This document shows, in pieces, positions 19,771 to 58,147 of a stretch of DNA of 64,000 nucleotides (positions within the stretch are counted from its first letter, which is position 1; every line of letters begins with the position of its first letter). The notes under the pieces were generated by a model that was given only the letters and a program-made list of their open reading frames with translations, had not been told where the DNA came from and did no database searches. The DNA comes from Mobula hypostoma (Eukaryota), in contig NC_086097.1 in assembly GCF_963921235.1 (NCBI RefSeq), positions 138,882,001-138,946,000 on the forward strand, read 5' to 3'. The translations under genes and the position numbers were made by a program.

Positions 19771-21755
19771 CATAAAACCATAGGACATAGGTGCAGAATT
19801 AGGCTATTCGGCCACCAAGTCTGCTCCGCAATTCGATCATGGCTGATTTATTTTCCTTCTCAACCCAATTCTGCCTTCTCCCCATAAACTTTGACCACCC
19901 CTTACTAATCAAGAACCTATCAAACTCTGCTTTAAACATACGCGAATCTGTGGAATTCATTGCTACAGATGTTTGTGGCAATGAATTCCACAGGTTCACC
20001 ATCCACCGTTCTACCTTTGTTCTTGGATTGGTTCTTATAAATTTCCACTGATCTTCTTAAATGCCAGTACATTATTCCTTAAATGCAGAGCCCAAAACTG
20101 TGCACAATACTCTAAATATAGTCTGATCAATGCCTTATAAAGCCTCAGGATTATATCATTATATTTAGATTCTAGCCCCCTCAAAATAATTGTTAACAGT
20201 GCATTTGCCTTCCTTCCTACAGACTCAACCTGCAAGTTAATCTTTAAGGATTCCCGCAATAGGATTCCCAAGTCCCTTTCCACCTCCAATTTCTGTATTT
20301 GCTCTGCATTTAGAAAATCTGCTATGGTTTTATTCCTTCTACTAAAGTGCATGATCATACCCTTTCCTAAAGCATCTGCAACCTATTTGCTTATTCTCCT
20401 AATCTGTCCAAATCCTTTTGCAGACTTACTGCTCAACCTATCTTTGAACAACTCTAACATCCAAATCATTACAAATAATGTGGAAAGTTAAAAGTGAAAC
20501 TAAAATCGAACCCAATACAGACCCCTGTGGAGCACCATTAATCACCGACAGCCAACCAGAAAATGTCTTCTTTATCCCCAGTCTTTGTCTTTGGCCAGTC
20601 TATCCATGCTAGTATCTTTCCTTTAATACTATGGAGCGCATATCTAGTTTAGTATCATTGACAAAAGCCTTTTGACAATCTAAGTAAACAACATCCATTG
20701 ATTCTCTTTTGTCTATCCTGCCTATTGTTTCCTCAAGGAATTCCAACAGATTTGTCAGGCAAGATTTTCCCTTAAGGAAACTATGGTGACTTTGTCATGG
20801 TCCGGTCCATGAAGTCTGCATTCTGGTTCATGGTCCAGTCGGTTGACTCCAGACTCCGGGTCTTCTGGCTATCCCTTGTTTCAGTTGGGCTTCATCATAG
20901 GCACCTGATACTTGTCTTGGGGATGGGAATATAAGTGGACCTGGGTTCGAGTGTGGTTGCTGGTTCATTCTGTCATATGAGGGGCGCTGAGAGTGGACCC
21001 AAGTGCAAGACACAGACACTGAAGTACTAGGAACAGGACTTGACTAGAGAGCTGGGACAAGAACACAGACCTGGGCTAGGACATTGGCTAGGCAAGCGGG
21101 ACCAGGACAAGGAACTGGGAACTAGGAGCCTGGGCTGGGACTTCGAGCCGGAGACTGGACTAGGACCCAGAACCTGGGTCTTGACTAGGGCTCGGACCCC
21201 GGAACTAGGCGAGGACATGACGTAGCTACAGGACAGGACATGGCTTGGGTTCTTTCATGGCGTAGCCACGTCATGTCCGCACCTAGTTCCGGGGTCCAAG
21301 CCCTAGTCAAGACCCAGGTTCTGGGTCCTAGTCCACTCTCCGGCTCAGAGTCCAAGCCCGGGCTCCTAGTTCCCAGTTCCTTGTCCTGGTCCCGCTTGCC
21401 TAGCCAATGTCCTAGCTCAAGTCTGTGTTCTTGTCCCAGCTCTCTAGTCAAGTCCTGTTCCTAGTATTTCAGTGTCTGTGTCTTGCATTTGGGTCCACTC
21501 CCAGCACCCCTAATATGACAGAACGAACCAGCACCCACACTTGAACCCAGGGCCACTTATATTCCCATCCCCAAGACGAGCATCAGGTGCCTATGATGAA
21601 GCCCAACTGAAACAAGGGACAGCCAGAAGACCCGGAGTCTGAAGTCCACGGACCGGACCGTGAACCGGAACGCGGACTTCACAGACCGGACCATGACAGA
21701 TTTGGCCTATTTTATCATGTGCCTCCAAGTACCTCGAAGCCTCATCCTTAATAAT
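19771..21755 (-). mobile_element. CR1 LINE (RT 3' part) hosting the palindromic insertion at 20793-21698
   Basis: LRLYKALIRLYLEYCAQFWA and MVNLWNSLPQ motifs; CR1 sequence is continuous across the insertion. Confidence 0.9.
20793..21698. mobile_element. 906-bp palindromic element (438-bp arms, 30-bp loop), TGTCATGG...CCATGACA, 5-bp TSD; probably Gypsy-LTR derived
   Basis: Arms 20793-21230 and 21261-21698 are equal-length reverse complements; flanks GACTT/GATTT; internal TGTCAT/ATGACA ends. Confidence 0.9.
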
Positions 21756-21756
21756 A

Positions 21757-26371: not shown

Positions 26372-28600
26372 AGCAACACACAAAGTGCTGGAGGAACTCA
26401 GCAGACCAGGCAGCATCTGTGGAGGGAAATAAACACCTCCTGTTTTGGACTGAGACCCTTCTCCAGGTCTGGACAGGAAGGGGACAGAATCCAGATTAAG
26501 AAGGTGGATGGAGGAGAATGAGGTCAAACTGGCAAGTGATGGGTGAGATCAGGCGTGGCAGTAGAATGGTGGGTTGGAGAGGGGAATGATGTGAGAAGCT
26601 GGAAGGTGATAGGTGGAAGGGATAGGGGGCTGAGGAAGAAGGCGTCTGACGGGAGAAGACAATGCAGTAAAGGGAAGGAGGTGGGGAACTGGGGGGATAT
26701 GATAGGAAGTTAATGGCAGGGTACAGAAGAGGTCAGGTGACACTCCACCTGTGAGTCTGTCAGTGTCATTTATTGTGTCCAGTGCTCCCAATGTGGCCTT
26801 CTCTACATCAGTGAGACTTGATACAGATTGAGGGACTGCTTTGTCGAGCACCTTTACACTGTCTGCCGCAAAAGGCAAGATCTTCTGGTGGCCACCAATT
26901 TCAGTTCCACCTCATTTTCCCACAGTGGCATGTCTGTCCATAGCCTCCCCTACTGTCATGATGAGGCCAAGCACAGGCCGGAGAGCAACAACTCATATCC
27001 TATCTGGGTAGCCTCCAACCTGACGGGCATGAACATAGATTTTTATAACATCTGGTTACTTCCCTTTCTTTCCCCTCCATCTCCCATTTTTCTCCTCACA
27101 TTCTGATGGCCCTCTCACCCCTTCCCTTCCCCTCTCTGACCTTAATGACTTGCCCATCACTTCTCTCTGGTTCTCGCTTACTTTTATTTACTCCACTGTC
27201 TCCTCCTATCAGTTCCCTGCTTCCTCACCTCTCCAACCATCACCTTCCAGTTCCTCAAATCATATTCCCCTTCCCTGCCGAACCACCTCTCTCATCTGGT
27301 CTCACCTATCACTTGCCAGCTTGTACAACTTCCCTCCATCCATCTTCTTATTCTGCCTTCTGGACCCTCCCTTTGCAGCCCTGATGAAGGGTCTCGGGCT
27401 GAAACGTCAACTGTTTACTTTCCTCCATAGATAGAACCATAGAACTATAGAACATGACAGCACAGAAACAGGCCTTTTAGCCCTTCTTGGCTGTGCTGAA
27501 CCATTTTTCTGCCTAGTCCCACTGACCTGCACCTGGACCATATTGCTCCATACACCTCTCATCCATGTACCTGTCCAAGTTTTTCTTAAGTGTTAAAAGT
27601 GAGCCTGCATTTACCACTTCATCTGGCAGCTCATTCCACACTCCCACCACTCTCTGTGTGTGAAGAAGCCCAACCCGCCCCAGATGTTCCATTCAAATTT
27701 TTCCTCCTTCACCCTTAACCCATGTCCTCTGGTTTTTTTCTCCTTGCCTCAGTGGAAAAAGCCTGCTTGCATTCATTGTATCTATACCCATCATAATTTT
27801 ATATACCTCTATCAAATCTCCCCCCATTCTTCTACGCTCCAGGGAATAAAGTCCTAACCTTTTCAACCTTTCTCTGTAACTGAGTTTCTCAAGTCCCAGC
27901 AACATCCCTGTAAACCTTCTCTGCACTCTTTCAACCTTATTTATATCCTTCCTGTAATTTGGTGACCAAAACTGAACACAATACTCCAGATTCGGCCTCA
28001 CCAATGCCTTATACAACCTCATCATAACATTCCAGCTCTTATACTCAATACTTTGATTAATAAAGGCCAATGTACCAAAAGCTCTCTTTACGACCCTATC
28101 TACCTGTGATGCCACTTTTAGGGAATTTTGTATCTATACTCCCAGATCCCTCTGTTCTACTGCACTCCTCAGTGCCCTACCATTTACCTTGCATGTTCTA
28201 CCTTGGTTTGTCCTTCCAAAGTGCAATACCTCACACTTGTCTGTATTAAACTCCATCTGCCATTTTTCAGCCCATTTTTCCAGCTGGTCCAAATCCCTCT
28301 GCAAGCTTTGAAAACTTTCTTCACTGTCTACTACACCTCCAGTCTTTGTATCATCAGCAAATTTGCTGATCCAATTTACCACATTATCATCCAGATCATT
28401 GATATAGATGACAAATAACAATGGACCCAGCACTGATCCCTGTGGCACACCACTAGTCACAGGCCTCCACTCGGAGAAGCAATTCTCTACCACCACTCTC
28501 TGGCTTCTTCCCTTGAGCCAAAGTCTAATCCAATTTGCCACCTCTCCATGTATACCTAGCTGCTGCCTGACCTGCTGAGTTCCTCCAGCATTTTGCGTGT
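26372..28600 (+). mobile_element. Penelope-like element (GIY-YIG 3' part with an inverted terminal copy at ~26372-26735), split by a CR1 insertion
   Basis: ~26745-26860 encodes CESVSVIYCVQCSQCGLLYISET*YRLRDCFVEHL; terminus CATAGA|TGCTGCCTGACC is split between ~27431 and 28561. Confidence 0.85.
27432..28560 (-). mobile_element. Relatively young 5'-truncated CR1 LINE
   Basis: Well-preserved GVPQGSVLGPLLFVIYINDLD, KFADDTK, LYKALVRPNLEYCVQFWSP; (TTCTATGG)-like tail. Confidence 0.95.
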
Positions 28601-31600
28601 ACTACATAACTATATCCGTATTGGTGATGGTTTCATCACCTCTCTGGTGTTACAGTTGCAAACACTTCTGTAAACATATGATGATGGTGTTATTAGAGGT
28701 GTAACACCCTCTATGGAGGTGTTAACAATTCTGTAACCATACAGGGAAAGGTGTGTCAGTGCTGCCTCAGTAAAGAGTAAGGTTCCATAGCTCTGTAATA
28801 TTATGGCTAAAGGTACTATCAATGTTGCAGGAGTACAGGCAAGGGTGTTCTCATATTATAACCTTGAGTTGATGAAGGATTAGGATATTGAGACCTCAGA
28901 CCTGGTTCAAAACATGGTCTGTTAGGCAACAATGACCTCTACTCACCTGTATACCCCTGAGACCCAGACTGCCGAATGCAGGTACCACAAGGAACTGGAG
29001 AGATGTCACCAACGCTGTTTCTACATTAACTGAGAGGGGAAGTGAACCAAAATCAGTGTCCCCTTCCCTTCTGATGTCTCCAGCACTGAATCCCTACATT
29101 GACTTGTCAAGATGGCACTGGCGAACCACAGCAACATGTTTTGGATGGATTAGAAAACTTCTAAAGATACTTCCTCTGAATCACTCTCACTGTAATCTGC
29201 CGTCTGCAATTTCCCTTTAAGCAACATACTTTTGAACCATCTTAATGAATCAACGATTTCACAATCTTCTGAAGGACTTGGTGGGATTAACTCTCAAGCA
29301 GACAGGCAAGGCACTTTTAAGTAGACAAAGGTGCATCACCATGCCCAGGAGAGAGGGAGGAGGGGAGCACTGCAAGCTAGACTGAAACGCAGAGGAATGA
29401 AAGCTCCCCCACCCAGAATCTTATTAGCAAATGTGCACTTGCTGGAGAACAAGATTGAGGACCTAAGACAAGTTTGCTGTATCAGAGGGAAATGAGGAAT
29501 TGTTGTGTTCTGTGTTCCACAGAGACATGGCTCACTTTAAACGTGTCGTATATGTCAGCAAGACCTGAGAACTTCTCTATACACAGGATAGACTGGACTG
29601 CCAATAGGAGAAGGCAAATGGTGAGGGTCTGTGTTTCATGATAAACTCTGTGGGTCTTGTGCACTCTTGATCCCCAAACCTGGAAAATCTAGTGATTAAG
29701 TGCCAATCATTCTGCTTATCAAGAGATTTTTCCTCAGTAATCTTAACCACAGTTTACATATTGCAAAAAGCCAACATTATCAGGCACTCGTGATTGTGAA
29801 TGATGCCAATACCAATCAAGTAACAGCCCAACCCAATACCTTTCAAATCATAGCTGGGGACTTCAATCAGGCTTGTTTGAAGAAATCTCTGCTTAGTTAT
29901 CATCAAAATATAACCCGCAGGACCAGGGATCCCAAAACACTCAACTACTTCTATACTACGATTAGCAATGTCTACTGTTTCAAGCCAAGACTGCATTTTG
30001 TGAAATCTGATCACTTGATTGTCTCTCTCCTACCTGCATACAGACAGAGGCTAAAGACCAAGAGGACAACAAAGGCGTGGTTGTGGAAGACAGAGGAATG
30101 GCTATGTATTTCGATTCAGTGGACTGGGCTGTGTTGAAGGATTCATCAGAGAATCTGAATGAAATCACCATATTTATCATGGACTTTATAAAAACAATTG
30201 TAGATGCATATGACCCCACAAAATCATTTTGAGTTTTCCCCAACTAGAAGCCTTGGATGAACCATGAGATTCACAATCTGCTGAGAGCCAGATCAGTGGC
30301 ATTCAGGTCTGGCAACCAAATGGATACAAAAGATTCGGGTATGATCTCTGGAAATCCATTTCAATAATATGGAGTGGCAATTCTTGACCAAACTTGAATC
30401 ACTGAAGGATGCTTGACAGCTGTGGAAAGGCTTGAATGCCACTGCCTCCTACAAAGTGAAGCCAAGCGACCTAGGTGACAACAAGGCTTTGCTCCCAGCT
30501 GAGCTCGATGCCTTCTACGCTCGATTTGACCATCAAAACAAAGGAGAATCTTCATGAACTCCCACAGCTTCCAATGACTTCAGTCTCTGAGGCCGGCACG
30601 AGAGCATCCTTCAGAAGGGTGAACGCACGGGAAGTATCTGGCCCAGATGGGGTACCTGGCTAAAGGCCCGTGCTGATCAACTGGCTAGGGTGTTTACCGT
30701 TATCTTCACCCTCTCACTTCGCAGTCCGAGGGACCCAGATGTTTCAACAGGCTTCACTTACACCAGTGCCTAAGGAAAATGTAGTTACCTGTCTCAATGA
30801 CTATCACCCAGCAGCACTTACATACATTCACTGTGCTGAAGTGCTTTCAGAGGTTGGTGATGAAACATATCAACTTCTGCCTGAGATGGATCCACTCCAA
30901 CTTGTGTGCCGTCACAACAGGTCCAGAGCAGATGCCATTTCATTGGCTTTTCACAACCCTGGACCTTCAGGATGGTGAAGTTGTATACATCAAGATGCTC
31001 TTTATTGACTACAGCTCGATGTTTAATACTATCAGCCCCTCACGACTAATCAATAAACTTCAAGACCTTGGCCTGAATACCTCCTTGTGCACCTGGATCT
31101 TCGGTTTCCTCACTTGCAGACCCCAGTCAGTTCGGACTGGCATAATCACCTTCTCCACAAGGTGCACCACAAGGCCCTGTGCTTGGAAATTCACTTTATA
31201 ATTATGACTAGGCGCAGCTCCAAAGCCAAGTTTAAGCTTGCTGGTGACATCAATGTTGTTGGCTGAAGCAAAGGTGGTGAATCAGCATATAGGAGGGAGA
31301 TTAAAAACCCGCTCGAGTGGTGTCACAACGACAACCTCTCACTCTTCAAGAAGGTAGAGAGGCAGACAAAAGGAAATTATAGGCCAGTTAGTCTGTCAGT
31401 GTTGGAGTCGATTGTTAAGGTTGTGGTTCTGGGGTGCTTGGAGGCACATGATAAAAGAAGCCGTAGTCAGCATGGTTTCTTCAAGGGAAAATCTTGTCTG
31501 ACAAATCTGTTAGCATTCTCTGAAGAAATAACAAGTAGAATAGACAAAGGAGAATTGGTTGATGTTGTGTTCTTGGACTTTCAGAGGCCTTTGACAAGGA

Positions 31601-32155
31601 ACCACATATGAGGCTGGTTAACATGCTACAAGCCCTCAGTATCATAGGGAAGATTCTAGAATGGATGAAGTAGTTGCTGATTGGCAGGAGGCGAAGGGTG
31701 GAAATAAAGGGAGCCTTTTCTGGTTGGCTGCTGGTGACTAGTACTGTTCCACAGCAATCTGTGTTGGGACCAATTCTTTTTACTTTATATGTTAATGATT
31801 TAGATGATGGTATTGATGGCTTGGTTGCAAAGTTTGCAGGCGATATGAAGGTAGGTGGAGGGCAGGTTGTTTTGAGGAAGTAGAGAGGCTACAGAAGGGT
31901 TTAGACAGATGATGAGAATGGGCAAAGAAGTGGCAGGTGGAATACAGTGTTGGGAAATGTATGGTCATGCACTTCGGTAGTAGAAGTGAAAGGGTTGACT
32001 ATTTTCTAAATGGAGAGAAAATACAAAAAACTGAGGCACAAAGGGACTTGTGAGTCCTTGTGCAGGATTCCCTAAAGGTTAATTTGCAGTTTAAGTCTAT
32101 GGTGAGGAAGGCAAATGTGATATTAGTATTTATTTCAAGAGGACTAGAATATAAG

Positions 32156-34175
32156 TAGGTCATGGTTCATTTTGGTAGGTCAATAGACAATAGATAATAG
32201 GTGCAGGAGTAGGCCATTTGGCTCTTCAAGCCAGCACCGCCATTCACTGTGATCATGGCTGATCATCCACAATCAGTACCTTGTTCCTGCCTTCTCCCCA
32301 CATCCCTTCACTCCGCTATCATTAAGAGCTCTATCTAACTCTTTCTTGAAAGTATCCAGAGAATTGGCCTCCACTGCCTTCTGAGGCAGAGCATTCCACA
32401 GATCCACCACTCTCTGGGTGAAAAAGATTTTGCTCAACTCCATTCTAAATGGCCTACCCCCTTATTCTCAAATTGTGGCCTCTGGTTCTGTACTCCCCCA
32501 ACATCGGGAACATGTTTCCTGCCTCTAGTGTGTCCAATCCCTTAATAATCTTATTTTTTTCAATTAGATCCCCTCTCATCTTTCTAAATTCCAGTGTATA
32601 CAAGCCCAGTCGCTCCAATCTTTCAACATATGACAGTCCCGCCATCCCGAGAATTAAGTTCATGAACCTCCGCTGCACTCCCTCAATAGCAAGAATGTCC
32701 TTCGTCAAATTTGGAGATCAAAACTATACACAATACTCCAGGTGTGGTCTCACCAGTGCCCTGTACAACTGCAGAAGCACTTCTTTGCTCCTATACTCAA
32801 TTCCCCTTGTTATGAAGGCCAACATGCCATTAGCTTTCTTCACTGCCTGCTGTACCTGCATGTTTACTTTCAGTGACTGATGAACAAGGACACCAAGATC
32901 TCATTGTACTTCCCCTTTTCCTAACTTGACATCATTCAAATAGTAATCTGCCTTTCTGTTCTTGCCATCAAAGTGAATAACCTCACATTTATCCACATTA
33001 AACTGCATCTGCCATGCATCTGCCCACTCACCCAACCTGTCCGAGTCACCCTGCATTCTCATAACATCCTCCTCACATTTCACACTGCCACCCAGCTTTG
33101 TGTCATTTGCAAATTTGCTGATGTTACGTTTAATCCCCTCATCTAAATCATTAATGTATATTGTAAATAGCTGCGGTCCCAGCACTGAGTCTTGCAGTAC
33201 CCCACAAGTCACTGCCTGCCATTCTGAAAGGGACCTGTTTATCCCTCTCTTTGTTTCCTGTCTGCCAACCAATTTTCTATCCATGTCAGTACCCTACCCC
33301 CAATACCACGTGCTCTAATTTTGCCCACTAATCTCCTATGTGGGACCTTATCAAAGGCTTTCTGAAAGTCCAGGTACACTATATCCACTGGATTTCCCTT
33401 ATCCATTTGCATAGTTACATCCTCAAATATGATGGCAGAATATAGTATTAATGGTAAGACTCTTGGCAGTGTGGAGGATCAGAGGGATCTTGGTGTCTGA
33501 GTCCATAGGACGCTCAAAGTAGTTGTGCAGGTTGACTCTGTGGTTAAGAAGGTGTATGGTGTATTGGCCTTCATCAATCATGGAATTGAATTTAGGAGCT
33601 GAGAGGTAATGTTGCAGCTATATAGGACCCTGGTCAGACCACACTTGGAGTACTGTGCTCAGTTCTGGTCACCTCACTACAGGAAGGATTTGGAAGCCAT
33701 AGAAAGGTTGCAGAGGAAATTTACAAGGATATTGCCTGGATTGGGAAGCATGCCTTATGAGAATAGGTTGAGTGAACTTGGCCTTTTCTCCTTGGAGCGA
33801 CGGAGGGTGAGAGGTGACCTGATAGAGGTGTATAAGATGATAAGAGGCATTGATCGTGTGGATAGTCAGAGGCTTTTCCCAGAGCTGAAATGGTTGCCAC
33901 AAGTGGACACAGGTTTAAGGTGCTGGGGAGTAGGTACAGAGGAGATGTCAGGGGTAAGTTTTTTACTTAGGAGTGGTGAGTGCATGGAATGGGCTGCTGG
34001 CAATGGTGGTGGAGGCAGATATGATAGGGTATTTTAAGAGACTTTTAGATAGGTACATGAAGCTTAGTAAAATAGAGGGCTATAGGTAAGCCTAGTAATT
34101 TCTAAGGTAGGGACATGTTCGTCACAACTCTGTGGGCCAAAGGGCTTGTATTGTGCTGTAGATTTTCTATGTTTC
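32156..34175 (+). mobile_element. CR1 (b), interrupted at ~32184-33426
   Basis: VHFGRS|NMMAEY junction; MLQLYRTLVRPHLEYCAQFWSP; TTTCTATG tail. Confidence 0.88.
32184..33426 (-). mobile_element. CR1 (c), innermost insertion
   Basis: VLGPQLFTIYINDLD, KFANDTK, EGVQRRF motifs; (CTATTGT)-like tail. Confidence 0.9.
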
Positions 34176-36362
34176 TATAAGAACAAGGATGTAATGTTGA
34201 GACTTTATAAAGCACTGGTGAGGCCTCACTTGGAGTATTCTAAGCAGTTTTGGGCCCCTTATCTGAGAAAGGATGTACTGAAACTGGAGATAGTTCAAAG
34301 GAAGTTCACAAAAATGATTCCAGGATTGAACGGCTTGTCATATGAAGAGCGTTTGATGGCTCTGGGCCTGTATTCACTAGAATTCAAAAGAAAGAGGGGT
34401 GACCACATTGAAAACTATTGAATGGTGAAATGCATTGATAGAGTGGATGTGGAGAGGATGTTTCCTTTGGTGGGAGTTGGGAGTGTCTAAGACTAGAGGA
34501 CAGAGCCTCAGAATAGAGATGGGGGGGGAGTGTCATTTTAGAGTGGCGATGAGAAGGAATTTCTTTAGCTGGAGAGTGGTGAATCTGTGGAACATGTTGC
34601 CACAGGCAGCTGTGGAGGCCCAGCCTTTATGTATCATTTAAGGCTGAGGTTGGTAGATTCTTGATTGGTCAGGGAATGAAGAAATTTGGCGAAGGGGGCA
34701 AGTGGGAGACAGGAGGTGGAGGCTGAGAGAAAAAATGGATCCGCCATGATGAAATGGCGGAACAGACTCGATGGGCAAAATGACCTAATTATGCACCTAT
34801 GTCTTATGGTCTTCTGGTCTCACTGAATGTCAACAAGACCAAGGAGCTGATTATCGACTTCAGTTGGAGGAAACTGGAAGTCTGTGAGCCAGTCCTTATC
34901 GGGGGATCGGAAATGGAGAGATCAGCAACTTTAAATTCCTCTGTGATATCATTTCAGAGGATCTGTATTGCGCCCAGTAAGTGCTATTATGAAGAAAGCA
35001 CAGTAAAGCCTCTAGTTTTTGAGGGGTTTGCAAAGATTCAGCATGACATCTAAAACTTTAAGGGAAACTTCTATGAATGTGTGATGAAGAGTATATTGAC
35101 TGGTCCACCACAGGTAAAGCCCACTCCACTATTGAAGTGCTGTCACAGGAAAGCAATGTCCGTTATCAAGGACACCCCATCACCCAGTTCATACTCTCTT
35201 CTCGCTGCTGTCATCAGGAAGAAGGTACAGGAGCTTCAGAACCTACACCACCATGTTCAGGAACAGTTATTAGCTCTCAACCATCAGGCTCTTGAACTAA
35301 AGGGGATAACTTAGTTCAACTTCACTCGCCCCACTGTTCCGACAGTCTATGGACTTCCTTTCAAGAACTCTTCACCCTATTATTGCCTGCTTGCTTGCTT
35401 ATTTATTTATTTATTTACATTATACTTTTCTTCTTTTGTATTTGCATAGTTTGCAGCCTTTTGCATTTTGGTTGTTTGTCTGTCCTGCTGGACATAGTCT
35501 TTCATTGATTCTTTTGTCGTTTCTTGGACTTACTGTGTATGCCCACAAGAAAATGAATCTCAGGGTTGTATATGGTGACATATATGTACTTTGAACTTTG
35601 GTGGGCAACAACAGTCATGGGCCTGGTCCTCTTTTTTGGGTAAGAGGTTACCATGAGGAGAGTCGAAGTGATTCAAGGATGTGCTCAAATGAATTTAGCA
35701 TCCTCACTGACTCCTGGCACTCTCTGGCCCATGACCATTCAAAATGGAGACGAAACATTCAGGACAGCATTGAGAACCTTGATTCCGTGCATCAGAAGCA
35801 CACAGAGGGCCCGCACCTGGTGGGAAGAGCAAACCAGCCATTCCCCCACCCTTTCAAGCACCCCATGCCCCATCTGTGCATGAACCTGTGGTTCCCTTAT
35901 TGGCCTCACTGGTCACCTTGGAATCCACAGATCCATATGGGAAGCCAGTCATCCTCAGTCACAAAGGACTGCCGAAGTAAAGGAAGAACTATATTGTCAT
36001 CAAAAGTGTTATCAGTGCTAAGACTTCATCGTGGAACGGGATATGAAATTATGAAGGTCATAGTTTGGGTGAATGCACATAGATGCTTTAGCTATAGCAG
36101 CGAATCAAGAACTGCAGGGCATAGGATTAACAGGGGAAGGGACCTGATGAATAAGATTTTCACAGAGAATGGCAATAATATACCAAACAAGCTGCCAGTG
36201 AATGTAGTTCAGGCAAGCAGATACAATAACAACATCCGTCTCTAAAGGACTTGTGGTCAAGCAAGCAGAGAGGAAAGATATGAGTCAGACTCAAGTAAAA
36301 GGGACGAGCTTTGATGGGCTCCTTGGTCAGCATGGACTGTATGACTGCAGGACCCACTGCTA

Positions 36363-39709: not shown

Positions 39710-41645
39710 AAGCAACACACACAAAATGCTGGAGGAACTCAGCAGGCCTGGCAGCATCTATGGAAAAGAGTAAACAGGCGCCGTTTCAGGCCGAGGCCCT
39801 TCATCAGGACTGGAAAGGAAGGGGAGACGTCAGAGCGAGAAGGTGGGGGGAAGGGAGGAAGGAGTGCAAGGTGGCAGGTGATAGGTGAAACTAGGAGAAG
39901 GGGAGGGGGTGAACTAGATTGGTGACAGAGATGAAGGGCTGAAGAAGGAGGAATCTGATAAAAGAGAACAGAAGGCCCTGGAAGAAGGGAAGTGAGAGGA
40001 GCACCAGCGGGAGGTGTTGGGCAGGTAAGGAGATAAGGTGAGAGAGGGAAACAGGAACTGGGGAAGTGAGGGCATTACTGGAAGTTCAAAATATCGACAT
40101 TCATGCCATCAGGTTGGTGGCTGCCCAGACAGAATATAACGTGTTTCTCCTCCAACCTGAGTGTGGCCACATCACGGCAGTAGAGGAGGCCATGGACTGG
40201 CCCATCAGAATGGGAATGGGAAGCAGAATTGAAATAGGTGGCTACAGGAAGATCCTGCTTTTTTTGGTGGATGGAGCGTTGTTGCTTGGTGAAGCAGTCC
40301 TCCAATCTACGTTGGGTCTCACCAATTTATAGGAGGCCACACTGGGAGCATTGGATACAATAGATGACCCTGACAGACTCACAGGTGAAGTGTCACCCCA
40401 ACTGGAAGGACTGTTTGGGGCCCTGAATGGTAGTAAGGGAGGAGGTGTAGGGGCAGATGTAGCATTTTTTCCGCTTGCAAGGATAAGTATCAGGAGGGAG
40501 ATCAGTGGAGATGGACGAGCGGACAAGGGAGTCGCATAGGGAGTGATCCTGTGGAAAGCAGAAAGTGAGGGCAGGGAAAGATGTACTTGGTGGTGGGATC
40601 CCGTTGAAGATGGCGGAAGAATTATGTGCTGTGTGCAGAGGTTAGTGGGGTGGTAGGTGAAGTCAAGAGGAACCTATCCCTGTTGTGGTGATGGGAGGAA
40701 GGGATGAGGGCGGACATGCGTGAAATGGAAGAGATGTGGGTGAGGGCATCATTGGTGGTGAAGGGAAGCCTCTTTCTTTGAAGAAGGTGGACATCTCATT
40801 AGCTCTGGAATGAAAAACCTCACTCTGAGAGCAGATGTGCGGAGACAGAAGATCTGAGAAGATGGGATGGTATTTTTACAAGTTACAAAATGGGATGAGG
40901 TAAAATTTAGGTAGCTATGAGAATCAGTGGGTTTATAAAAGATATCAGTAGATAGACTGTCTCCAGAGATGGAGGCAGAAGGACAGAGGGAGAAAGGCAA
41001 GGGAGGTGTCAGAAATGGACCAAGTAAATTGGAGGGTGTAAGCTGGAGGCAAAGTTATTGAAGTCAATGAGCTCAGCATGGGTGCAGGAAGCAGGACTAA
41101 TGCACTCGTTGATGTAGCATAGGGAGAGCTGGGGAGCGATACCGGTGTAGGATTGGAACATGAACAGTTCCACATAGTCAATAGAAAGGCAGACATAGCC
41201 GGGACCCATGGCTATACCTTTGGTTTGGAGGAAGTGGGAGGAGCTGAAGGAGAAATTATTGAGACTAAGGAACAATTCCACCAGACGGATGAGAGCTGTG
41301 GTGGATGGGAACTGGGATTTTTGTCCAGAAAGAAGCAAAGAGCTTTAAAGGCCTCCTGATGGGGGATAGAGGTGTATAGGTGTAGGCCGTACTTAGTGAA
41401 AATGAGACGATCAGGCCAGGGATTTTAAAGTCATTGAAAAGATGAAGAGCGTGTGAAGTGTCACGGATGTAGGTGGGAAGGGACTGAACCCAGGGGATGA
41501 AACCTGCCTGTCCAGTTAGACACATTGTTTCTGCTTGTCCCTACCCCTTATATCTGCATACCTTGGCTCTGTTTTATGCCTCCTGGTTCACAGCCTTCCT
41601 ACTTACATCTACGATACTTCTCACGCTCATGATCTTTTCAATGTC
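39710..41645 (-). mobile_element. Penelope-like element: decayed RT, GIY-YIG endonuclease and terminal repeat
   Basis: FLQTKGIAMG, LCYINECI (decayed YIDD), TDIFYKPTDSHSYL, VIYCIQCSQCGLL*IGET; hammerhead-like terminus at 39775-39812. Confidence 0.9.
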
Positions 41646-45300: not shown

Positions 45301-46200
45301 TGATTTTCAGTTCAATTAGAACAAGGCAGCAACGTGAAATGACTGTAGGTTGGGAACTGGGAGGAAATGGGTCACCAGGACCCACATTGAATCCTAAACT
45401 CATCTGTTTTACCCAAGATGTTGACTGCCTTGCCAAGTGTTCTCACTTCTGATTTTATAGGAAACAGTAATAAATCAATTGTCCAGACAAACAAGAAGAG
45501 AGAAAAAATCGTTTCAACCAAACAACGGAAGAGTTTAATTTGGAGTCAGCCATGCGTGAGTTTGGAAGGCTGATTTGTGAGCTCACCAAGTTGTTTAAAA
45601 TTCTAACCCCTGTTATTGTTAAAATAGAAACGTTATTTTTTTCTGGCAGGGGAGTATAAAACTAGAGCCAGGCCGTTCTGGGGCAGTAACGGGAGGGTGC
45701 AGATTTTCCGGGGATTTTCCGGGGAAGGACATCATTATTAGGTTGTAGTTTATGGAGATCGATTGATTTTATTTAACGAGGTGACATGTTTGTGAAATAA
45801 ACATAAGGCAGGAACTGGAGATCTAGTGCATATCACTGATGATGGAACAAATTTGAGGGACTGAGTGACCTCCACCCTTTCCTGTGTTCTAATAAATAGA
45901 TGAAAGCCGTGAACCAACAGGAACATGTTATGTGGGAGGAGAAATGGGTTACTGGATTTGTAATTTGTTTCCAAGTTCGCAAATGCTAGAATGCTGATTC
46001 TCAGGCAGACCTGAAGTGGCCGAGGAGCATTTGCTATATCTACTCGTCAGGCAACGGGACAAAGTGGAGATTGCTTGGGAATTGCACGTTCTCTGTCCTT
46101 TGCAGAGGAGGGGTCTGGGCAGTTTGATTGTTTTTTTTCCGACTGTTTTAAAGTTGTACCTTGTGTAAAGAACGAGTTTAGGACCCACCACACCATACCA

Positions 46201-46950
46201 TTAGTCGTTAGTAATCATCTCCTCTGCTCCCAGTGAAAATCGATGGTTGGGGGAACTCAGGCGGAAGTTGAAGGATCCATAGATCTTCCCCGACCTGCCA
46301 GCCAATGAGAACCTCTGGCGCCGGTACAACTCGCCTTTGCAGATGGATATCATCAGCAAGGTGGAGAGCAGCATCCCGCCGAGAGTGAGGAGTCCAAGGC
46401 CAGCGATCACACACCTGTCCAGGTGAGCTCCCACGCGGGCACTCTGCCGCTGCAATTGCTCCATTTCCCGGGCTGAAACACTGTCCGGATCCACGCTCAC
46501 ATCCCGGGGGATGACGTAGGATATGATGACCAGACTGATGCCACTACAGAGAAAGAGCAGAGCGCTGATGAAGCCATAGTCCACTGGGGAGTCGGAGAGA
46601 TCGGGCGAGATGTCCTCGGAGAGAGACGAGAGTTCTCGCAGCTCCTCGGGTGCCGGTCTGCCGTCGCCACAGGCGCCTTGGTAACACGGAGGGCTGCAGC
46701 TTCCGTCCGACAGCGGGGAACACGCGCGCTGGAGATTGACATTTTCATCAATGTAGGAGAAGGAAGTTTCCAGTTGCTGGTGACAGCATACCTTGGAGTC
46801 CGGGCGCTCCGCTTTAAAGCCGGCACTCTGCATCGGCGCTGTCCCAGGTGCTGAACTGGAGACCGGGCCATGGATACCCCAGCTTAGTTCCTTCCAATGT
46901 CCAGAGTGCGCCCGGTCTTCGCCCAGAAACACCAGCTCCACTGAAGTCAT
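46201..46950 (-). CDS. TMEM74: TMEM74-family transmembrane protein, 249 aa, uninterrupted CDS
   Basis: LETSFSYIDENVNL, DYGFISALLFL (TM1), AREME, HLDRCVIAGL..LLTLGG (TM2), KGELYRR, YGSFNFR match the family; TMEM74 vs TMEM74B not resolved. Confidence 0.93.
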   Translation of the reverse strand: MTSVELVFLGEDRAHSGHWKELSWGIHGPVSSSAPGTAPMQSAGFKAERPDSKVCCHQQLETSFSYIDENVNLQRACSPLSDGSCSPPCYQGACGDGRPAPEELRELSSLSEDISPDLSDSPVDYGFISALLFLCSGISLVIISYVIPRDVSVDPDSVSAREMEQLQRQSARVGAHLDRCVIAGLGLLTLGGMLLSTLLMISICKGELYRRQRFSLAGRSGKIYGSFNFRLSSPNHRFSLGAEEMITND

Positions 46951-49221
46951 GATCTCCCTCAGTGCCTCCCTTCTCTCACTCGCAGAGAGCGTTCTTTAAG
47001 CCATCTCCGAAAACTGCACTTTATGCACACTGAGCCGTGGCTCGCCGTGGAGTGGACAAGGAATCGCCTAGTGCCACTACCCCTCCGTACCACTAAAAGT
47101 CAACAACTGCGTCCCACATCTCCACCGTAATGTTGTCTGTAAATCACTTCGTCTTGGGGAAATGCATTTCACTATCCGTCTGTAGACTCCGACAATTGGC
47201 AATATGCCGATCCGAGACTTGCCTCTGTTGACATAAAGGACACATTCGCTGAAACGACGGACCGGTAGGGCGGTCACTCTACACAAGTGCTTCGGTGCAC
47301 TATGGACACGGGAGCTCCAGCCCGCGATCCGCACACCCCATTTAATGCGGACAGTTAACGTCGTTAAATCTTGCACCAAGATCGCGGCAATGTTTGCAGA
47401 AAACAATAGCTCCTACGCTCTCACCCCCACAGTCAGACCCACCTCACACCCCGCCCACTTCACATTTAACCCCACACTCCAGCCTCTCACACCTCGCCTA
47501 CCTCAGTTACTACCCAACACTCTACCCCTTCACACCTCGCTTACTACCTCACACTCCAACCTCCTCACACCTCGCCCACCTCACTGAAAACTCCACGACC
47601 CCATGCATTCACTCCACTATCACCACCCGCATCTTCCCCCAACTGTCAACCCCAGCTCCCACGCCCCAGGGCGACGCCTCTGCAAATGATTTACAACAGC
47701 TTCAGAAGCACAGAATCAAATTAATCCAACCTAGCAGATGGCGAGGTCCCATCCACTTAAATCGCGTGCTTTAATTAGCTGGGTTTCTGACGCCGGCTTG
47801 GAAAGCAGCCAGAGAATTTGAACAGTGAACTTTCTCCCTGAACAATCTCCCTGTCAAAGCGATAAACTTCAGTAATCGCTTTCAAATCAACGTCCAACAG
47901 TGTCCCGAGCCAGCGTCCCGTCCCCGGCGCGAAGATGCTCGACTTGGCTGTACAGGAGCTGACCGCCTCCGTAGAACAGATAAGAGTGAACGAATCTTGA
48001 ACTGGCACTGACCACACGAACGCATCAGAATGTAAACAAGCCCCTTCATTTTTTTATTCCTGCAGACATTGCCCCGACGTACCTTCCTCGGCTCCCGAGT
48101 TTCGTCGCTCAGGGCGCACCCTGCACGGTGTGGTGCAGGCGAGCCGGACTTTGACCGAGAGCAGTGCTCGCACCGGTTCCGCCACTCCTCGGAGCTGCTG
48201 ATGTGTCAGTCCTGCGGATCGCAGCGGAAGCTCGGGACTCGCATCTCCACTGGGCGGAGGACTCTGGGAACTAGAGTCTCAGCATCCGATCGAGAGTATT
48301 TTCTCGCACTCTACCGTCTGCACAGTGAACAGCACCTGAGGCTGGAGCCCCGCAAGGAAACGGCTTTCACAACCCGACTGCATTCAGATTAAACAACGTA
48401 TAAAGTCACCGATTAAGGGGGAGAACAATTTGTGTTTTTTTTTACAGAGCGTCTTTCAGCCCAAAGCGTAGTATCTTAATAGAGCCTGGTCACTGTTCAG
48501 TTTGTCACATTAGACCCCACACCAAAGTTATAACATTCTGTGTTCTTCTTAATGGTCGGCAGTGAGGAGAACTACGGACATATGTATGGTCTGCTGAGGG
48601 GCTGGGAAGTGGAGGAGTATTATCTTAAAATGGGAACGGGGCGTTATCCCCAATACAAAGGGCCACTCTAACAACACCGGTCGAAAAGTGTTCGACCGGT
48701 CGACAGCGTTAACGTTTCTGGTTGACGGCCCGTCGACTCCACATTTCAGAACCACAAGATGGGCTTCTCTCTCCGCGGGCGCTGGCCGACCTTCTGTTTT
48801 TTTTTCTCCTCCGGCTTTCTCGCTTTTTGTTGCGGTTTTCCAGCATCTGCAGTCTTGTTTCGCATTAAAAGTGCGTCGCTTCCTTGGAAATGCCTGGCAG
48901 GTTTCCGACGGGGTGGGGGTTAGTTTGGCTTACTGGGAGATGGGTGTTCACCGCATTAAGTCGATCGGCAAATTATTATAAAAGCCCAAAATTAAATGCT
49001 GATGCTGGAAATCTGAAATAAGAAGGAGAAGGACACGGAGATGTCATTTCAAGTCCGGGACTCTTCCTCAGACCTTCTGATACCTCGGCGTGTTTCAAAT
49101 AAGCATCGTTAAGTAATTATAACTTCAGGTGAACGCATATCGGAAACAGCACCAAAAAGAACCTCTAGTGCCGGTACATCTCTTCCTCCATGTCCCAGCT
49201 CCCGCCACGACACCGAAGGAA

Positions 49222-49280
<59 letters not shown>

Positions 49281-50100
49281 TCAGATTGGAGAGGATTTAG
49301 TGTGTCCACAACACGGTCGCATCAATAATGACGACACGCGGCGAAATTACTTTAGTTGCTATGGTGTCTGTTTACAGGAACTCATGACAGACGCGGTGCT
49401 ACTTTCCCATGCGCTCCTTCCACGCTGTTGTGTTGGAGGCCTTGGGCAGTAATTCGGTCCCTGGTTACTCAAGCGCCCGATGTTAACTGCAGCTGGTTTC
49501 TCTACCCCTCTCTCTCTCTCAGTGTGCGTGAGGAGTGGAGCGAGGAATGTGGGTGTATGGGGGTAAGGGGGACGGTGGTGGATAGCAGCCCCAGAACGAA
49601 CGGCGCCCCCCGAGTTAAATCTCACCCCACGTAGCAGATGTGAGAACGGCGAGACGGAGCCAACAGGGTCACTGGAGCACCTGTTGCTGGGGGCGAGAGG
49701 AACGACCATTTAAACCGACCCGGTGGTCGGACAAAGCTCCATGTCCGCGCGATTCGGAATCTGGTGGCTCGGGCAGACGGAGCGGGACGCAACTCTCCCA
49801 AACACTGACGATCGCTCTCCAAGTTCCCCCTCACTTCTCCCCCGGGGAGACCCATTTACCACGTGTGCCGCCACGGGACTGCCTCTTCATGTTTTATGAT
49901 CTACCCGACCCGAGGGGCGCTGGTTAGCGTGAATCACCGCGGATTCCTTGGAGAAATTTAATCTACGTCTCTCAGTGTTATTCATCGTTCCTGTTGCCGC
50001 TGTAGCCACGCCGCGTCAATTCCTTCCCTATGGAAACCAGAGAAGAAAGAAAGAGGGTAGATAGTCGAAGGTCGAGGGAGAGGGCGGTCGCAGTGTAGGG
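46230..50100. promoter_or_regulatory. CpG-rich island over the TMEM74-like CDS and upstream region (likely promoter)
   Basis: CpG visibly abundant compared with CpG-depleted flanks. Confidence 0.7.
49223..49275. repeat. (TG)n microsatellite
   Basis: Directly visible. Confidence 0.97.
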
Positions 50101-50518: not shown

Positions 50519-51723
50519 ATAGAGACTATCGCTTTAGGCTGAGAAGGGGTAAGTTTAAAGGAGACTGTAGACATTTTTTTTGGTCTGGATTCTTTTTAGA
50601 CATTGGGTAGTATGAATGCGGAGAGACCAGTGGAAGGAACGCACTGCCGGGAAAGTGCTGGATGCAGATACGACAGTAACACTAAAGCGGCACATGAACC
50701 GGAATGGAGGAGTATGGACCACGTGCGGGCAGATCGTATTAATTTGGATTGGCAACATGGTCTGCAGGGACGCGGTGAACCGGAAGGCTGTTCGAGTGCT
50801 GTACCGTTCTATATAGGAGGGAAGGGATAAGGAAAGGGACTGTTGCCGGGGAGAGGGTGAACCTCTTCAGCAACAACGTCCTGAGACATAGGGTGAGCTA
50901 ATAGGCCTTAAGAGCTAATGGGTGGACTGAGCCAGTCTTTGGGGGTCAACTTGGAGATTTTTCACAGACCCTGCATGGGCTTGATGGGTCGAGTGGCCTG
51001 CTGAGAAGTTGCACTGAAGTGAATAAAGAATTATGACCCTTGGACCCTTGATGCACTGAGCTCCTCCGGCAGAAATGTTTGCTGCTCCGGAGTCCCTGAG
51101 ATTTAGGTCTGTACTACTGAACTGCTCCTAGACAGTAATAACCTTTTGTCAAGGTGTGTACTGACAGATGACTAAAACCAGGTGTGGATGAGCAACAGAC
51201 TCCCCCATGTAGAGATGGAAACAAGAGTTTGTTCATAGGAATTCCAAGAGAACATCAGTGGCTTGACAGGGCAACACCATGAAGTAAATCATTCTCAAAA
51301 CACAAGAACCCCACAATAAGCACTAATGGGGAATCTGCTTTAAATAATCAAAGTATGTAGAAAACCCATGCCAGTCAAAATAAACTTAACAAGGTTAAAC
51401 ACAAGGACTTACTGACTCTGGAAAAGACAACAATTAGCAATCACAGGTGCACCTGTCCACTGAGCTCACGACAATTTCTATAAATCATGGGATTAAGGTG
51501 CTTTCAGAACAGAGCCAGGATTTATTGCCAATGTAGTGACCTTGAACTCTCAGTTACTTATCAATTTAATTTTCCTTCTGATTCCACTCTGGTGTATCTC
51601 TATGTGGCCTACCATCTGTTGTAACAAGTTCCAAGGCAAATTAAGAGTCAAGATTTAATTCATGATCTCTGATACCTGTATTAGAACTAGCCAGGACTAA
51701 TGGAGGGCAAACACATACGAGAT

Positions 51724-52225
51724 GTTGGAGGAGCAACACCTCATATACCATCTAGGTATGTCCATACATGGCCTCTTCTACTGCCATGATGAGGCTAAAC
51801 TCAGGTTGGAGGAGCAACACCTCATATACCATCTAGGTAGTCTCCAGCCCCTTGGTATGAAGATTCAATTCCGGCAATACCCTCCCCCTCCCTTCCCCAT
51901 CCCAGTTTCACTCTGCCTCCTCCCTCAGCTGCCTACTACCTCCCTCATGGTTCCACCTCCTTCTACTACCCTTTCCCCTATACTTTCTTCACCTTTCCTG
52001 CCTATCACCTCCCTGCTTCCCCTTCCCCACCCCTTTATCTTTTCCCTTACTGGTTTTTCACCTGGAACCTACCAGCCTTCTCCTTCCCACCCTCCCCCCA
52101 CCTTCTTTATAGGGCCTCTGCCCGTTCCCCCTACAGTCCTGACGAAGGGTTCCAGCCCGAAATGTTGACTGATCATTTCCGCGGATGCAGCCCGACCTGC
52201 TGAGCTCCTGCAGCGTGTTGTGACT
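51724..52225 (+). mobile_element. 5'-truncated Penelope-like element with a 35-bp 5' direct duplication
   Basis: HGLFYCHDEAKLRLEEQHLIYHLGSLQPLGM (GIY-YIG C-terminus), pyrimidine tract, terminal motif. Confidence 0.85.
52134..52171 (+). ncRNA. Minimal type I hammerhead ribozyme motif
   Basis: CAGUC CUGACGA A GGGU UCCA GCCC GAAA UG UU GACUG: perfect stem I, 4-bp stem II, conserved core. Confidence 0.7.
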
Positions 52226-52261
52226 GATGGAGGGCATCAGTTTGCAGAATTAAGTCAGGTT

Positions 52262-52650
52262 TGTGGTCATTGAAGTTTGGAAAACTGAGGAGCATTCTCA
52301 CTGAAACCTATCGACTTTCGGAATGCCCAGATAGAGTGGATGTAGAGAGGATCTTTCCTATAGCAGGGGAGTTGAGAGCTAGAGGGCACAGCCTCAGAAT
52401 AGAGGCATGTACATTTAGAACGGAGATGAAAAGGAATTTGTTTAGCCAGAGGGTGGTGAGTCTGTGGTGAGACAGCTGTGGAGGCCAACTCAGAGTATAT
52501 TTAAAGCAGAGGTTGATAAGTTCTTGATTAGTAAGGGTGTCAATGGTTGCAAGGAAGGCAAGAGAATGGATAATAAATCAGTCATGGTGGAATGGCAGGG
52601 CAGACTAGATGGGCTGAATGGCCTAACTTTGCTCCTGCCTTATGATCTAT
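52262..52650 (+). mobile_element. CR1 3' fragment
   Basis: DRVDVERIFP..RARGHSLRI..FSQRVVSLW. Confidence 0.85.
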
Positions 52651-52964
52651 GTTTTTCTCTTTCCGCAGACACTGAGTGATTCACTGTAATAAACATAGAA
52701 ATTGTTGAAAACGCAGTGAGTAGGCCAGCATCTCTGGGAAGAGGAACAGAGTTGATGTACCAGGTTCAAGACCTTTCATCAGACCTGATCCATAGGGAAA
52801 TTCCAGCATTCTCCTTTTGATATTAGGTTTCTGCAGGAACTCTGATGTACACCTCACAACTTTACATGCCCCTCTGTGTATGTCCTCACTCGCTACCTCT
52901 AACAGCCTTGTTGACCTAATAAACGAGACAGCTTCATGTTAACAAAGCAACACTGCCTCATTCT

Positions 52965-54638
52965 TTGTTGGCTCTGCTGGTAAGAGATCGAATTGCATCT
53001 TTAGAAAGAGGTGACATACAGTCAGTAAATGTGGACTCTTTGTGGGTGGAGTTAAGAAAATGCAAGGGGGAAATGTTGTTATGGGAATCATTTTCAGGCC
53101 TCCAAATAGTAGGCAAAGTGTGGGTTGAGATTGCAAAGGGAGCTGGGAAAAGCATATAATAAGGGTAATGTCACAATTGTAATGGGCGACTTCAATATAC
53201 AAGGGGTTTGGGAAAATCAGGTTGGTGCCAGATCGCAAGGGAGGGAATGTGTTGAATACCAACAAGATGACTTTTTAGAGCAGCTGATGCTTGCGCCTCC
53301 TTGGGGAAAGGCTATCTTAGATTGGGTGTTGTGTAATAACCCAGATCTTATTAGGGAGCTTAATGTAACCAGCATGGTCTCTGTAAAAGGAAATCTTGCT
53401 TGACAAATCTGTTAGAGTTCTTTGAGAAAGTAACAAACAGAGTGGTTAAAGGAAAGGCAAGTGGATGTCATTAATTTGGATTTTCAGAAGGCATTCGATA
53501 AGGTGCCACGCATGATAAACAAGATGCTTATCATGATAAAATCCTATGGTGTTACAGGAAAGATACTGGCATGAATAGAGAAGTGGCTGACAGGCAGGAG
53601 GCAGTGAGTGGGAATAAAAGGGGTCCTTTTCTGGTTGGCTGCCGGTGACTAGTCGTGTTCGTCAGGGGTCAGTATTGGGACTTCTCACATTGTTTCTCAA
53701 TAATTTGGATAATGGTTTTGTAGCAAAATTTGCGAAGGTAGTTGGAGGGGTAGGTAGTGCTGAGGACGCTATGCGATTGCACCAGGACTTAGACAAATTG
53801 GAAGAATAGGCAAAAAAGTGGCAGACAAAAAACAGTGTTGGGAAATGTATGATAATGCATTTTGGTAAAAGGAACAATAGTGTGGACTATTATCTAAAAG
53901 GGGTGAAAGTTCAAACATCAGAGGAGCAGAGGGACTTAGGAGTTCTTGAACAAGACTCCCAGAAGGTTAATTTACATGTGGTAAAGAAGGCAAATGCAAT
54001 GTTGGCATTCATTACAATGGGAATAGCATATAAGAGCAAGGAGATAATGCTGAGGCTTTATAAGACTCTAGGCAGGCCTTGCTTGGAGTGTTGTCAATAG
54101 TTTAGGGACCGTGTTTCAGAAAGGATGTGTTGTCATTGGAGAGAGTCCAAAGGGGATTCACGAGGATGATTCTAGGAATGAAAGGTTTAACATTAAGGGA
54201 GCGTTTGGCAGCTTTGGGCCTGTACTCACTGGAATTTAGAAGAATGCAGGTAGATCTCATTGAAACCTGCTGAATGTTGAAGTGACTCAATAAGGTGGAA
54301 GTGGAGAGGATGTTGCCTCTGGGGAGCGTATCCAGGACTAAAGGTCACAGCCTCAAAATTGAGGGTTGGCCTCTTAGAATGGAGGTAAGGGGGAAATTTT
54401 TTAGTCAGAGAGTGATGAATCTGTGGAATGCTCTGCCACAGACTGTGGTGGAGGCCAAGTCCGTGGGTATAATTAAGGCAGTAGTTAATCGTTTCCTGAT
54501 CAGTCAGGACATCAAAGGATGTGGCGAGAAGGCAGATGTATGGGGTTGAGTGGAATCCGGGATCAGCCATGATGGAATGGTGGAGCAGATTCGATGGGCT
54601 GAATTGCTTAATTCTGCTCCTATGTCTTATGGTCTTAT
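52965..54638 (+). mobile_element. Internally deleted CR1 ORF2 (endonuclease part joined to RT at ~53368)
   Basis: IVMGDFN, AILDWVLCNNPDLIREL, then QHGLCKRKSCLTNLLEFFE; TCTTATGG-like tail. Confidence 0.9.
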
Positions 54639-56240: not shown

Positions 56241-56426
56241 GAGCAACATACACAAAGTGCTGGAGGAACTCGGCAGGTCAGGCAGCATTTAAGGAAGGTA
56301 ATAAATAGTCTGCATTTCAGGCCAAGATCTGATGACCAGTCTCAGCCTGAAAGATTCACTGTTTGTTCCTTTCTATAGATGTTGCCTGAACTACTGAGTT
56401 CCTCTAGCATTTTGTGTGTGTTGCTC
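56241..56426. mobile_element. Fold-back mini element made of two inverted Penelope-like termini
   Basis: GAGCAACATACACAAAGTGCTGGAGGAACTC ... GAGTTCCTCTAGCATTTTGTGTGTGTTGCTC inverted arms. Confidence 0.8.
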
Positions 56427-58147
56427 CATGTCTGTAGTCCTTCCATGGCTGCATATGAGGTTGTGGAAGGAGCCATAGTAAAGAAAGTAATCTTCCCTCT
56501 TCTCCTACCAGTATTGCAAAAGGAACAGGGAGGGTAAGTCTTCTGACTGGTAGAAGCTCAATGGGAAGAATGCCCACCACCACCACCCTTGCCCAAGTTA
56601 TACACTACCTTGTTCTGTGATGAAGGAGAGAGAAGCACAAGGTTGAAATAGCTGAAATGGCAGCTTTTAAGACTCAAGTAATGAGAGATCATAAAGTGAA
56701 ATAAAATTTCTCAGCCATGAAATAACTCACTCGATCATTTGATTTGGATTTGTCCAACAATTACTCTGACATTGCAATAAAGAGTTACTGGGTTCCTAGT
56801 GACAGCATAAGATGGAGACTTGCCATTTATATAATTAGCACATTCCAACTAAGCCTTCTTCTCTGGGCTCAGTAGCTCTGCTTCACTGTCCATCACTCAC
56901 AAATGTCAATGGCAGAGGGACAAGTTGCTCAGCCCAACCAGTCCATACTGTCAGATTTGATCCTTGTGAGTCACTTTACAAAACTGCATCACTACATGCT
57001 TGTGTTCCTCTCTCCCTTGTGGCCATACCTTCAGCAGCTGCCCCAGGGAATGAGTTCCACATTCTCACTCTTCTCCTGCATTCCTATTTGTGGTACATGG
57101 TGGCTGCCTTACGTTTACATCGCATGAGTGGGAACATTCTCTATACATTTTCCTCATCAACCCCTTTCTCGTAATTTTAACAACCTCTGCTTGGTTACCC
57201 TTTGCCATACGTTTACTAAAGGAATGAACACTACATAGAACATTACAGTGCTGGAACAGACCATTCCTACTATTTGTTTTTATTTTTTAATACATCGTTT
57301 CCCTTGCTTTCATGTCCCAGTTAACAGGGTGAAGACTGAAACAGTGTATGTGTGCTCCATGGTTTGGTCCATTATCAAGTCTCTGCTTTTCACTTCTGTT
57401 CCCCCAAAATAAACCCATGGGCTTGAGTCATTACATTTGCTGGCCGACCTGACTCTCATGGCACTTAGTTTTTAATCTATCTCTAACCCACTTAGACACT
57501 TGTTTTACAAGGGCATATCTTTCTTTCACCAAAACACAACATCTCCATACATTATATTGCATTCAAATGCCAGCTACTCATTGCTGCTACAAAGTTTGTT
57601 CACTTCCTCTGAGACTTTGATGGTCGTTTTCCATATTATTAATATTAGCTCTCAAATTGACATCCATTCTGTGCAAAGTCCTTCATGTCTCAATTCCGTG
57701 TCACTTTGTGAAACTCAGATGCTGGGGTCCTGATCCCTGTGAAATAACCTTCTGCCTCTGTGTAGTTACCATTACTCTCCACTCTGTTCTGTTTGTTGAC
57801 AGCTTATTTTCCATTCTGAGTATCAAAGAATAGGGTGCTGCATCTCCATCTTCCCTCATTAGTCTATGAACCAAACTTTGGAATCGCTCAGATAACTCTG
57901 GCCTCATCCTATCAGAGACATCTCCTTTGTCTGATCTACCCCTCACCCACCTTCTCTGCTACCTAAACCTAACTTGTTCCTTCACTTTTCCGGTTCTGAC
58001 GAGGGTCTTGAACCGAACACTAACTCTGCTTCTCTTCGCACAGATGCTGCCTGTCCCACTGAGAATTTCCATCTTTTTGATTTCTATTTTGTAACAACTC
58101 TCCTCATCTTGGATGTTTTGATAAGGGTTTTCCACATGAAAGATCAA

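Follow-up and report, generated by a model that had tools for sequence, protein, structure and literature searches.

A minimal hammerhead ribozyme motif in a truncated Penelope-like element of Mobula hypostoma: very probably a decaying relic

A 64,000-nucleotide stretch of the Mobula hypostoma genome (contig NC_086097.1, positions 138,882,001–138,946,000), here termed the window, contains a minimal type I hammerhead motif of 38 bases at positions 52134–52171 of its plus strand. The motif is found behind the end of an endonuclease-coding sequence, in the terminal repeat of a 5′-truncated Penelope-like element (PLE) that is flanked by a direct repeat. It belongs to a large family, and compared with most of its relatives it has T in place of C at position 52163. 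Taken together, the data make it very probable that this solo copy is an inactive relic undergoing neutral decay, and the parent ribozyme probably worked only as a dimer. The class of motif was published in 2014 (Cervera and de la Pena; PMC4209133), and the present copy is one of very many.

Structure of the motif and its occurrence in the window

All of the motif parts named in a preliminary description are found in the sequence. Stem I is formed by CAGTC (52134–52138) and GACTG (52167–52171), the core CTGACGA lies at 52139–52145, and an extra A (52146) is unpaired between positions 9 and 10.1. Stem II consists of GGGT (52147–52150) and GCCC (52155–52158), with three G-C pairs, a closing U-G wobble and the loop TCCA; the G10.1-C11.1 pair is present as G52147-C52158. 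These are followed by GAAA (52159–52162), the TG at 52163–52164 that occupies the helix III positions, and T at both 52165 and 52166. The predicted scissile bond is directly after 52166 (position 17).

A structural descriptor for minimal type I hammerheads was composed with the motif already known and was applied at five stringencies. When the 64 kb window is searched in both orientations, it has a single match at all five, 52134–52171, and it has none in 300 dinucleotide shuffles of 11001–64000. At the gathering score there are no Rfam matches in the whole window, and the motif falls under no Rfam family; at E ≤ 10 the region 52080–52240 yields five weak matches, none of them a hammerhead. 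The motif pattern has no matches in metagenome contigs or in viral contigs, and a protein-based scan of viral contigs gave three pattern matches and no relatives. As an isolated fold the motif is mildly unusual (z of −2.0, with 6 of 200 shuffles equally good).

A profile made from six copies finds 17 matches in the window at E ≤ 1, several of which are arranged as inverted pairs. Only 52134–52171 retains the entire core (11/11) together with all pairs of stem I (5/5) and stem II (4/4), and the view that this is the best-preserved copy in the window is borne out. The term ‘near-intact’ is appropriate for the core and stems I and II, but not for helix III, which is needed for dimer cleavage and carries a change. 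More distant hammerhead-like copies are at 49038–49076 (minus strand), 52749–52787 (minus) and 57991–58026 (plus); their first stem I pair is U-A and not C-G, which suggests other subfamilies.

Minimal hammerheads in PLE terminal repeats are described as having an unpaired base before G10.1, the G10.1-C11.1 pair and palindromic positions 15.2/16.2 (PMC4209133). The motif resembles them in being of type I, with a 5 bp helix I, one unpaired base between 9 and 10.1, the G10.1-C11.1 pair and no helix III loop; also shared are a self-complementary 15.2/16.2 in the family, solo occurrence in a truncated element and a very high copy number. There are two differences. Helix II is 4 bp here, whereas it is 6–8 bp in the Schistosoma and Drosophila motifs, and positions 15.2/16.2 are UG in this copy in contrast to the palindromic dinucleotide of the PLE class (PMC4209133). 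The palindromic 15.2/16.2 without a helix III loop is present in the family, and the UG at 52163–52164 is able to self-pair by two wobbles alone; the copy is a member by descent that is damaged at helix III. As first proposed, sequence, protein homology and PMC4209133 all point to a Penelope-like terminus that bears a minimal type I hammerhead. A description of this ray family was not found in open-licence papers and preprints, and two supplement files of PMC4209133 contain no shark or ray terms; file 1 may list the family.

Anatomy of the insertion and class of the element

The insertion between the direct repeats is 512 bp, a 5′-truncated Penelope-like copy. The 15 bp repeats, at 51695–51709 and 52222–52236 on the plus strand, have 14 of 15 bases in common, as good a match as is found in 1 of 300 random flank pairs, and probably represent a target-site duplication. 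Next to the 5′ repeat is a short inverted piece of the element tail (51710–51733, minus strand). Its reverse complement matches the tail of another copy, at 39713–39736, in 19 of 23 bases, seven of which are the word TGGAGGA. By this same word the inverted piece overlaps an exact 35 bp duplicate (51724–51758, plus strand, 100% identity) of endonuclease-coding positions 51805–51839, which sits at the 5′ truncation point. It is a little surprising that copies 81 bp apart are identical when the target duplication has one mismatch. Candidate origins of the duplicate are a template jump at insertion, a later duplication or an assembly effect.

Further along the plus strand is the C-terminal remnant of a Penelope-like reverse transcriptase (RT)/GIY-YIG open reading frame (51749–51880), recognized by tblastn and alignment, which has neither a YIG motif nor RT. 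It is followed by the untranslated 3′ stretch of the terminal repeat (51884–52133; 82% pyrimidine), which aligns with a minus-strand copy at 39720–40194. The hammerhead is about 260 bases behind the endonuclease remnant, on the same strand and sense to the reading frame. The same order, endonuclease and then hammerhead, is seen in the copies at 39713–41161 (minus) and 26729–27432 (plus). Downstream of the ribozyme, alignment within the window and relatives' contigs delimit a conserved 50-base tail (52172–52221, plus strand). The contigs reach about 52223, with loose ends at 52222–52223, and cover drops after about 52225; the copy stops a few bases before the point where relatives go on. A splice acceptor and start codon in the run of bases past the ribozyme were considered and rejected, as AG is absent here and no homolog N-terminus matches the translated tail. 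In sequencing run X5 positions 52234–52289 are uncovered and in run X9 they are partly covered, which is uninformative on the presence of the insertion.

PLE insertions are described as truncated at the 5′ end and as having an inverted copy next to them, a tail and target duplications that vary (PMC8557442). Of five other insertions in the window, three have no clear target duplication, and one has a candidate in which 10 of 11 bases match, at 13243/13479. A 10/10 duplication at 39679/41157 was rejected in view of the second copy being inside RT-coding sequence. The inverted pairs of the Penelope-like terminus at 56241–56426, 13300–13477, 26376–27432 and 11001–11330 can also be mentioned; the first two have a longer tail extension confined to one side, as described for PLE insertions.

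The Poseidon element PAc of Anolis carolinensis is comparable in that it has a minimal hammerhead in the terminal repeat and an element end downstream (PMC11167929). Both target strands are cut and extended by the anole element (PMC11167929), and if both strands were cut and extended here as in PAc, this would account for the inverted piece. In PAc the reading frame starts inside stem II and priming takes place in an AC-rich loop 111–118 bases into the reading frame (PMC11167929), whereas the present copy ends about 55 bases past the cut site, in a UG-rich tail. With its 15 bp target duplication and an inverted tail piece whose junction is a shared 7-mer, the insertion is a clean fossil that fits two-strand priming.

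Animal non-LTR retrozymes also have type I hammerheads linked to PLEs, and hammerhead retrozymes are reported in one chondrichthyan genome (2026 preprint, bioRxiv 10.64898/2026.07.22.740005). Retrozymes are described there as tandem non-coding arrays. The hammerhead at 52134–52171 is a single copy with a coding remnant attached and no tandem array at the site, and membership of the retrozyme class was rejected on these grounds.

The class of the element can be approached from its protein. Positions 51749–51871 are 78% identical over 41 amino acids to the Mobula hypostoma protein P0004 (tblastn, E of 1e-15), and of the endonuclease domain the copy retains just the final 41 codons, where the reading frame ends. 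The preliminary description placed the motif downstream of GIY-YIG coding sequence; these endonuclease codons are indeed upstream, but the YIG motif itself is absent from the copy. Pfam searches with two remnants from the window, 51701–52165 and P0002, gave no match.

A GIY-YIG-like remnant at 40078–40548 (minus strand), with two stops read as X, matched 4 of 108 candidate proteins at 61–70% identity, all four from Hypanus sabinus and Mobula hypostoma. One of the four is P0004, for which 750 relatives were found at E ≤ 1e-30. Seven longer homologs were scanned: five have RT with GIY-YIG at the C-terminus, one has the endonuclease alone and one has nothing, several of these Pfam domain matches being below the Pfam cut-off. 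GIY-YIG was found in three of four ray homologs, below the cut-off as well. The RT and C-terminal GIY-YIG arrangement is present in part in the window copy at 40057–41161. No solved structures related to P0010 were found. P0008, another PLE-like protein with RT and GIY-YIG, has C2H2 zinc fingers at its N-terminus, which could reflect a fusion or an error of gene calling.

In P0002, P0003, P0004 and three long homologs, the endonuclease is preceded by a C-x4-C-x2-C linker. The CX2-5CxxC linker is known in Neptune and Nematis and not in Penelope/Poseidon (PMC8557442); it is present in the window copy at 40078–40548 and was lost by truncation at 51749–51880. Based on the linker before the endonuclease, the element is likely a Neptune-type EN+ PLE. 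It resembles this type (PMC8557442) in the order of RT and then C-terminal GIY-YIG, in the linker seen at 40078–40548 and in ray homologs, and in 5′ truncation, inverted 5′ piece, tail and target duplication. It differs in that only 41 codons are left in this copy.

The longest Penelope-like remnant in the window is the one at 39713–41161 (minus), which continues upstream. It has a partial RT, the linker and the whole endonuclease, with stops and frameshifts, and a damaged hammerhead. Other repeats are prominent as well. A 26 bp tandem array at 307–10841 has about 403 copies with 94% matches; its plus strand consists almost entirely of purines (GC skew about 1.0), and it includes a 200-N gap at 7977–8176. 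Fragments of another abundant repeat are at 52296–52660, 19768–23166, 31351–34813 and 53370–54638; three pieces of it gave no Pfam match, and the look of its translation suggests a CR1-like LINE. RT matches are found at 28134–28598 and 30785–31198, and a 900 bp stretch at 20793–21698 matches itself in reverse complement with 91% identity.

Sequence variation among relatives

Contigs of relatives, at 80% likeness, number 8954, 4104, 1883 and 651 in four public runs. The summed contig depth is no copy number. In the pile-up, which covers 4 of 24 listed runs, is biased toward copies like 52134–52171 and gives percentages that are not family frequencies, C makes up 74, 76, 87 and 86% of depth at 52163 in the four runs, and G makes up 72–88% at loop position 52154. 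Among 14 other copies in the window, the helix III dinucleotide is CG in three, TG in four, CA in five and otherwise in two, and a CG/TG/CA pattern is found at four CpG columns across window copies. Such a mixture is what methyl-CpG decay leaves when it affects the two strands. The early guess that UG represents a deaminated CG is confirmed, both by the C of the relatives and by CG, TG or CA in 12 of these 14 copies.

The cleavage triplet is more variable. C at 52166 accounts for 31, 34, 9 and 60% of depth in the same four runs, and the corresponding CpG column in window copies has CG in two, CA in four, TG in four and other dinucleotides in four. Relatives commonly have GUU, and GUC too is a genuine state of the family; GUU may have arisen from GUC by a second CpG decay or may mark a subfamily. 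GUU is a slower cleavage triplet. Active triplets include GUU, and the natural ones are GUC and GUA (PMC3138052).

The stems are nearly invariant in the relatives' contigs. At the 10% listing level, stem variation is found only at 52158 (T in 2–14%, a G-U wobble) and 52170 (C in 0–16%). Covariation was assessed on 10 decayed window copies. Two-sided changes are found at three of nine stem pairs, with as many in 219 of 500 shuffles, and the covariation score was reached by 131 of 500 shuffles, so that neither exceeds the shuffled level; slid controls pair less than the true stem positions. It should be pointed out that the present copy differs from the relatives' majority at six listed positions over about 175 bases. 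With so few differences, youth is sufficient to account for an intact 38-mer. In run X15, which is RNA only by guess, the tail is covered more deeply than the sequence upstream; contigs cannot rank parts, nor do they reveal strand or ends.

Activity of this copy and alternative explanations

Single minimal hammerheads are reported to show no cleavage, and dimers and trimers to show weak cleavage; most genomic copies are solo and in truncated elements (PMC4209133). A review (PMC6765202, which cites Lunse et al., RNA Biol 14:1499) agrees on this behaviour. Published work suggests a scheme in which two tandem terminal repeats of the parent element would pair their self-complementary ACGU segments to form helix III. 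Each core would then cleave behind position 17 (52166), probably with assistance from the protein that the element encodes; a tandem precursor RNA would be processed in this way. In generating the present copy, reverse transcription presumably began in the tail and stopped about 470 bases upstream, and the main product would have been joined to a short inverted second product. Later methyl-CpG decay may have altered the loop (52154) and helix III (52163).

Folding predictions are in line with loss of function. The 4 bp self-duplex AUGU has a predicted energy of +2.6 kcal/mol, compared with −1.7 kcal/mol for the natural ACGU (27404–27407), and a mixed AUGU/ACGU duplex is near neutral (+0.1 kcal/mol); the energies compared are those of 4 bp helices and not of an active dimer. 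The dimer helix of this copy is thus predicted to be destabilized. Among the forms that the folding represented, which do not include the active one, the lowest-energy dimer predicted for the 38-mer is a strand-swapped duplex. In the 38-mer, stems I and II are predicted with probabilities of 0.9–1.0, and a helix between core positions G5–G8 and the helix III segment with 0.67–0.80; the monomer is predicted to fold both stems but to bury its core in this alternative helix. UG can still pair with itself by two wobbles. Neither descriptor nor profile finds a second intact motif or tandem partner within the 64 kb window, and judging from the sequence the copy is most likely silent.

Perhaps the hammerhead-shaped motif of the family serves reverse transcription mainly as a folded signal, for protein binding or for priming, with cleavage being incidental. 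The anole hammerhead cleaves only with the element's protein, and insertion in vitro does not need it; mutants with a dead ribozyme inserted normally, and RNA-seq ends were not reported at the cut site (PMC11167929). Naiad PLEs also proliferate without canonical hammerheads (PMC8557442). On the other hand, the motif is conserved from one PLE clade to another (PMC4209133), and no catalytic base has an alternative letter at 10% or more in the relatives, in a pile-up that favours like copies. A signalling role as the main one is considered unlikely, while deserving some weight; it bears on the parent element and leaves the verdict on this copy unaffected.

A further explanation is that this copy is still a low-rate ribozyme, in which the UG helix III and GUU are tolerated and transcripts are cut in trans or with protein help. 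It is consistent with the undamaged core and stems, the high stem probabilities predicted for the 38-mer, the near-neutral mixed duplex, the inclusion of GUU by a review in its list of active NUH sites (PMC3138052) and the 651 family contigs from a run guessed to be RNA. Yet even intact tandem dimers of minimal hammerheads cleave poorly in vitro (PMC4209133), the 4 bp intermolecular helix is very weak, stem probabilities drop to 0.52–0.58 in a 346-nt context and the window is without a tandem partner. Residual activity is accordingly judged improbable.

Selection could also be invoked for a copy whose core and both stems are intact while the 16 other window matches are damaged. About 4 kb away is a CpG-rich region, 46001–50000 (CpG observed/expected of 0.84 vs 0.32), which holds a neurensin/TMEM74-like reading frame at 46201–46995 on the minus strand (Pfam PF14927, E of 4e-8), with an acceptor-like site at 47225 and a donor-like site at 48082. 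Co-option by the host as a regulatory element near this gene, although this is the least damaged copy in the window, is hardly credible: the ribozyme is on the strand opposite to the gene and would not form in its pre-mRNA, the youth of the copy by itself predicts an intact 38-mer, and the changes sit on CpG sites, one within the functional helix.

The explanation favoured here, a solo relic that is very probably inactive, means that the finding matters little as it stands: it is one decayed copy of a class known since 2014. Its importance would be much greater if solo copies cut host transcripts in trans. Conceivably, this solo hammerhead, located about 4 kb from a TMEM74-like promoter region and oriented away from it, still cuts when divergent transcripts pair in trans with the abundant CG-bearing transcripts of the family, and this would constitute a genome-wide, dose-dependent cleavage network in rays. 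This is a very long shot; if true, thousands of dispersed ‘dead’ Penelope ends would take part in that RNA cleavage network. The family supplies a series of naturally occurring variants of helix III and of the cleavage triplet, usable to probe the role of the hammerhead in PLEs.
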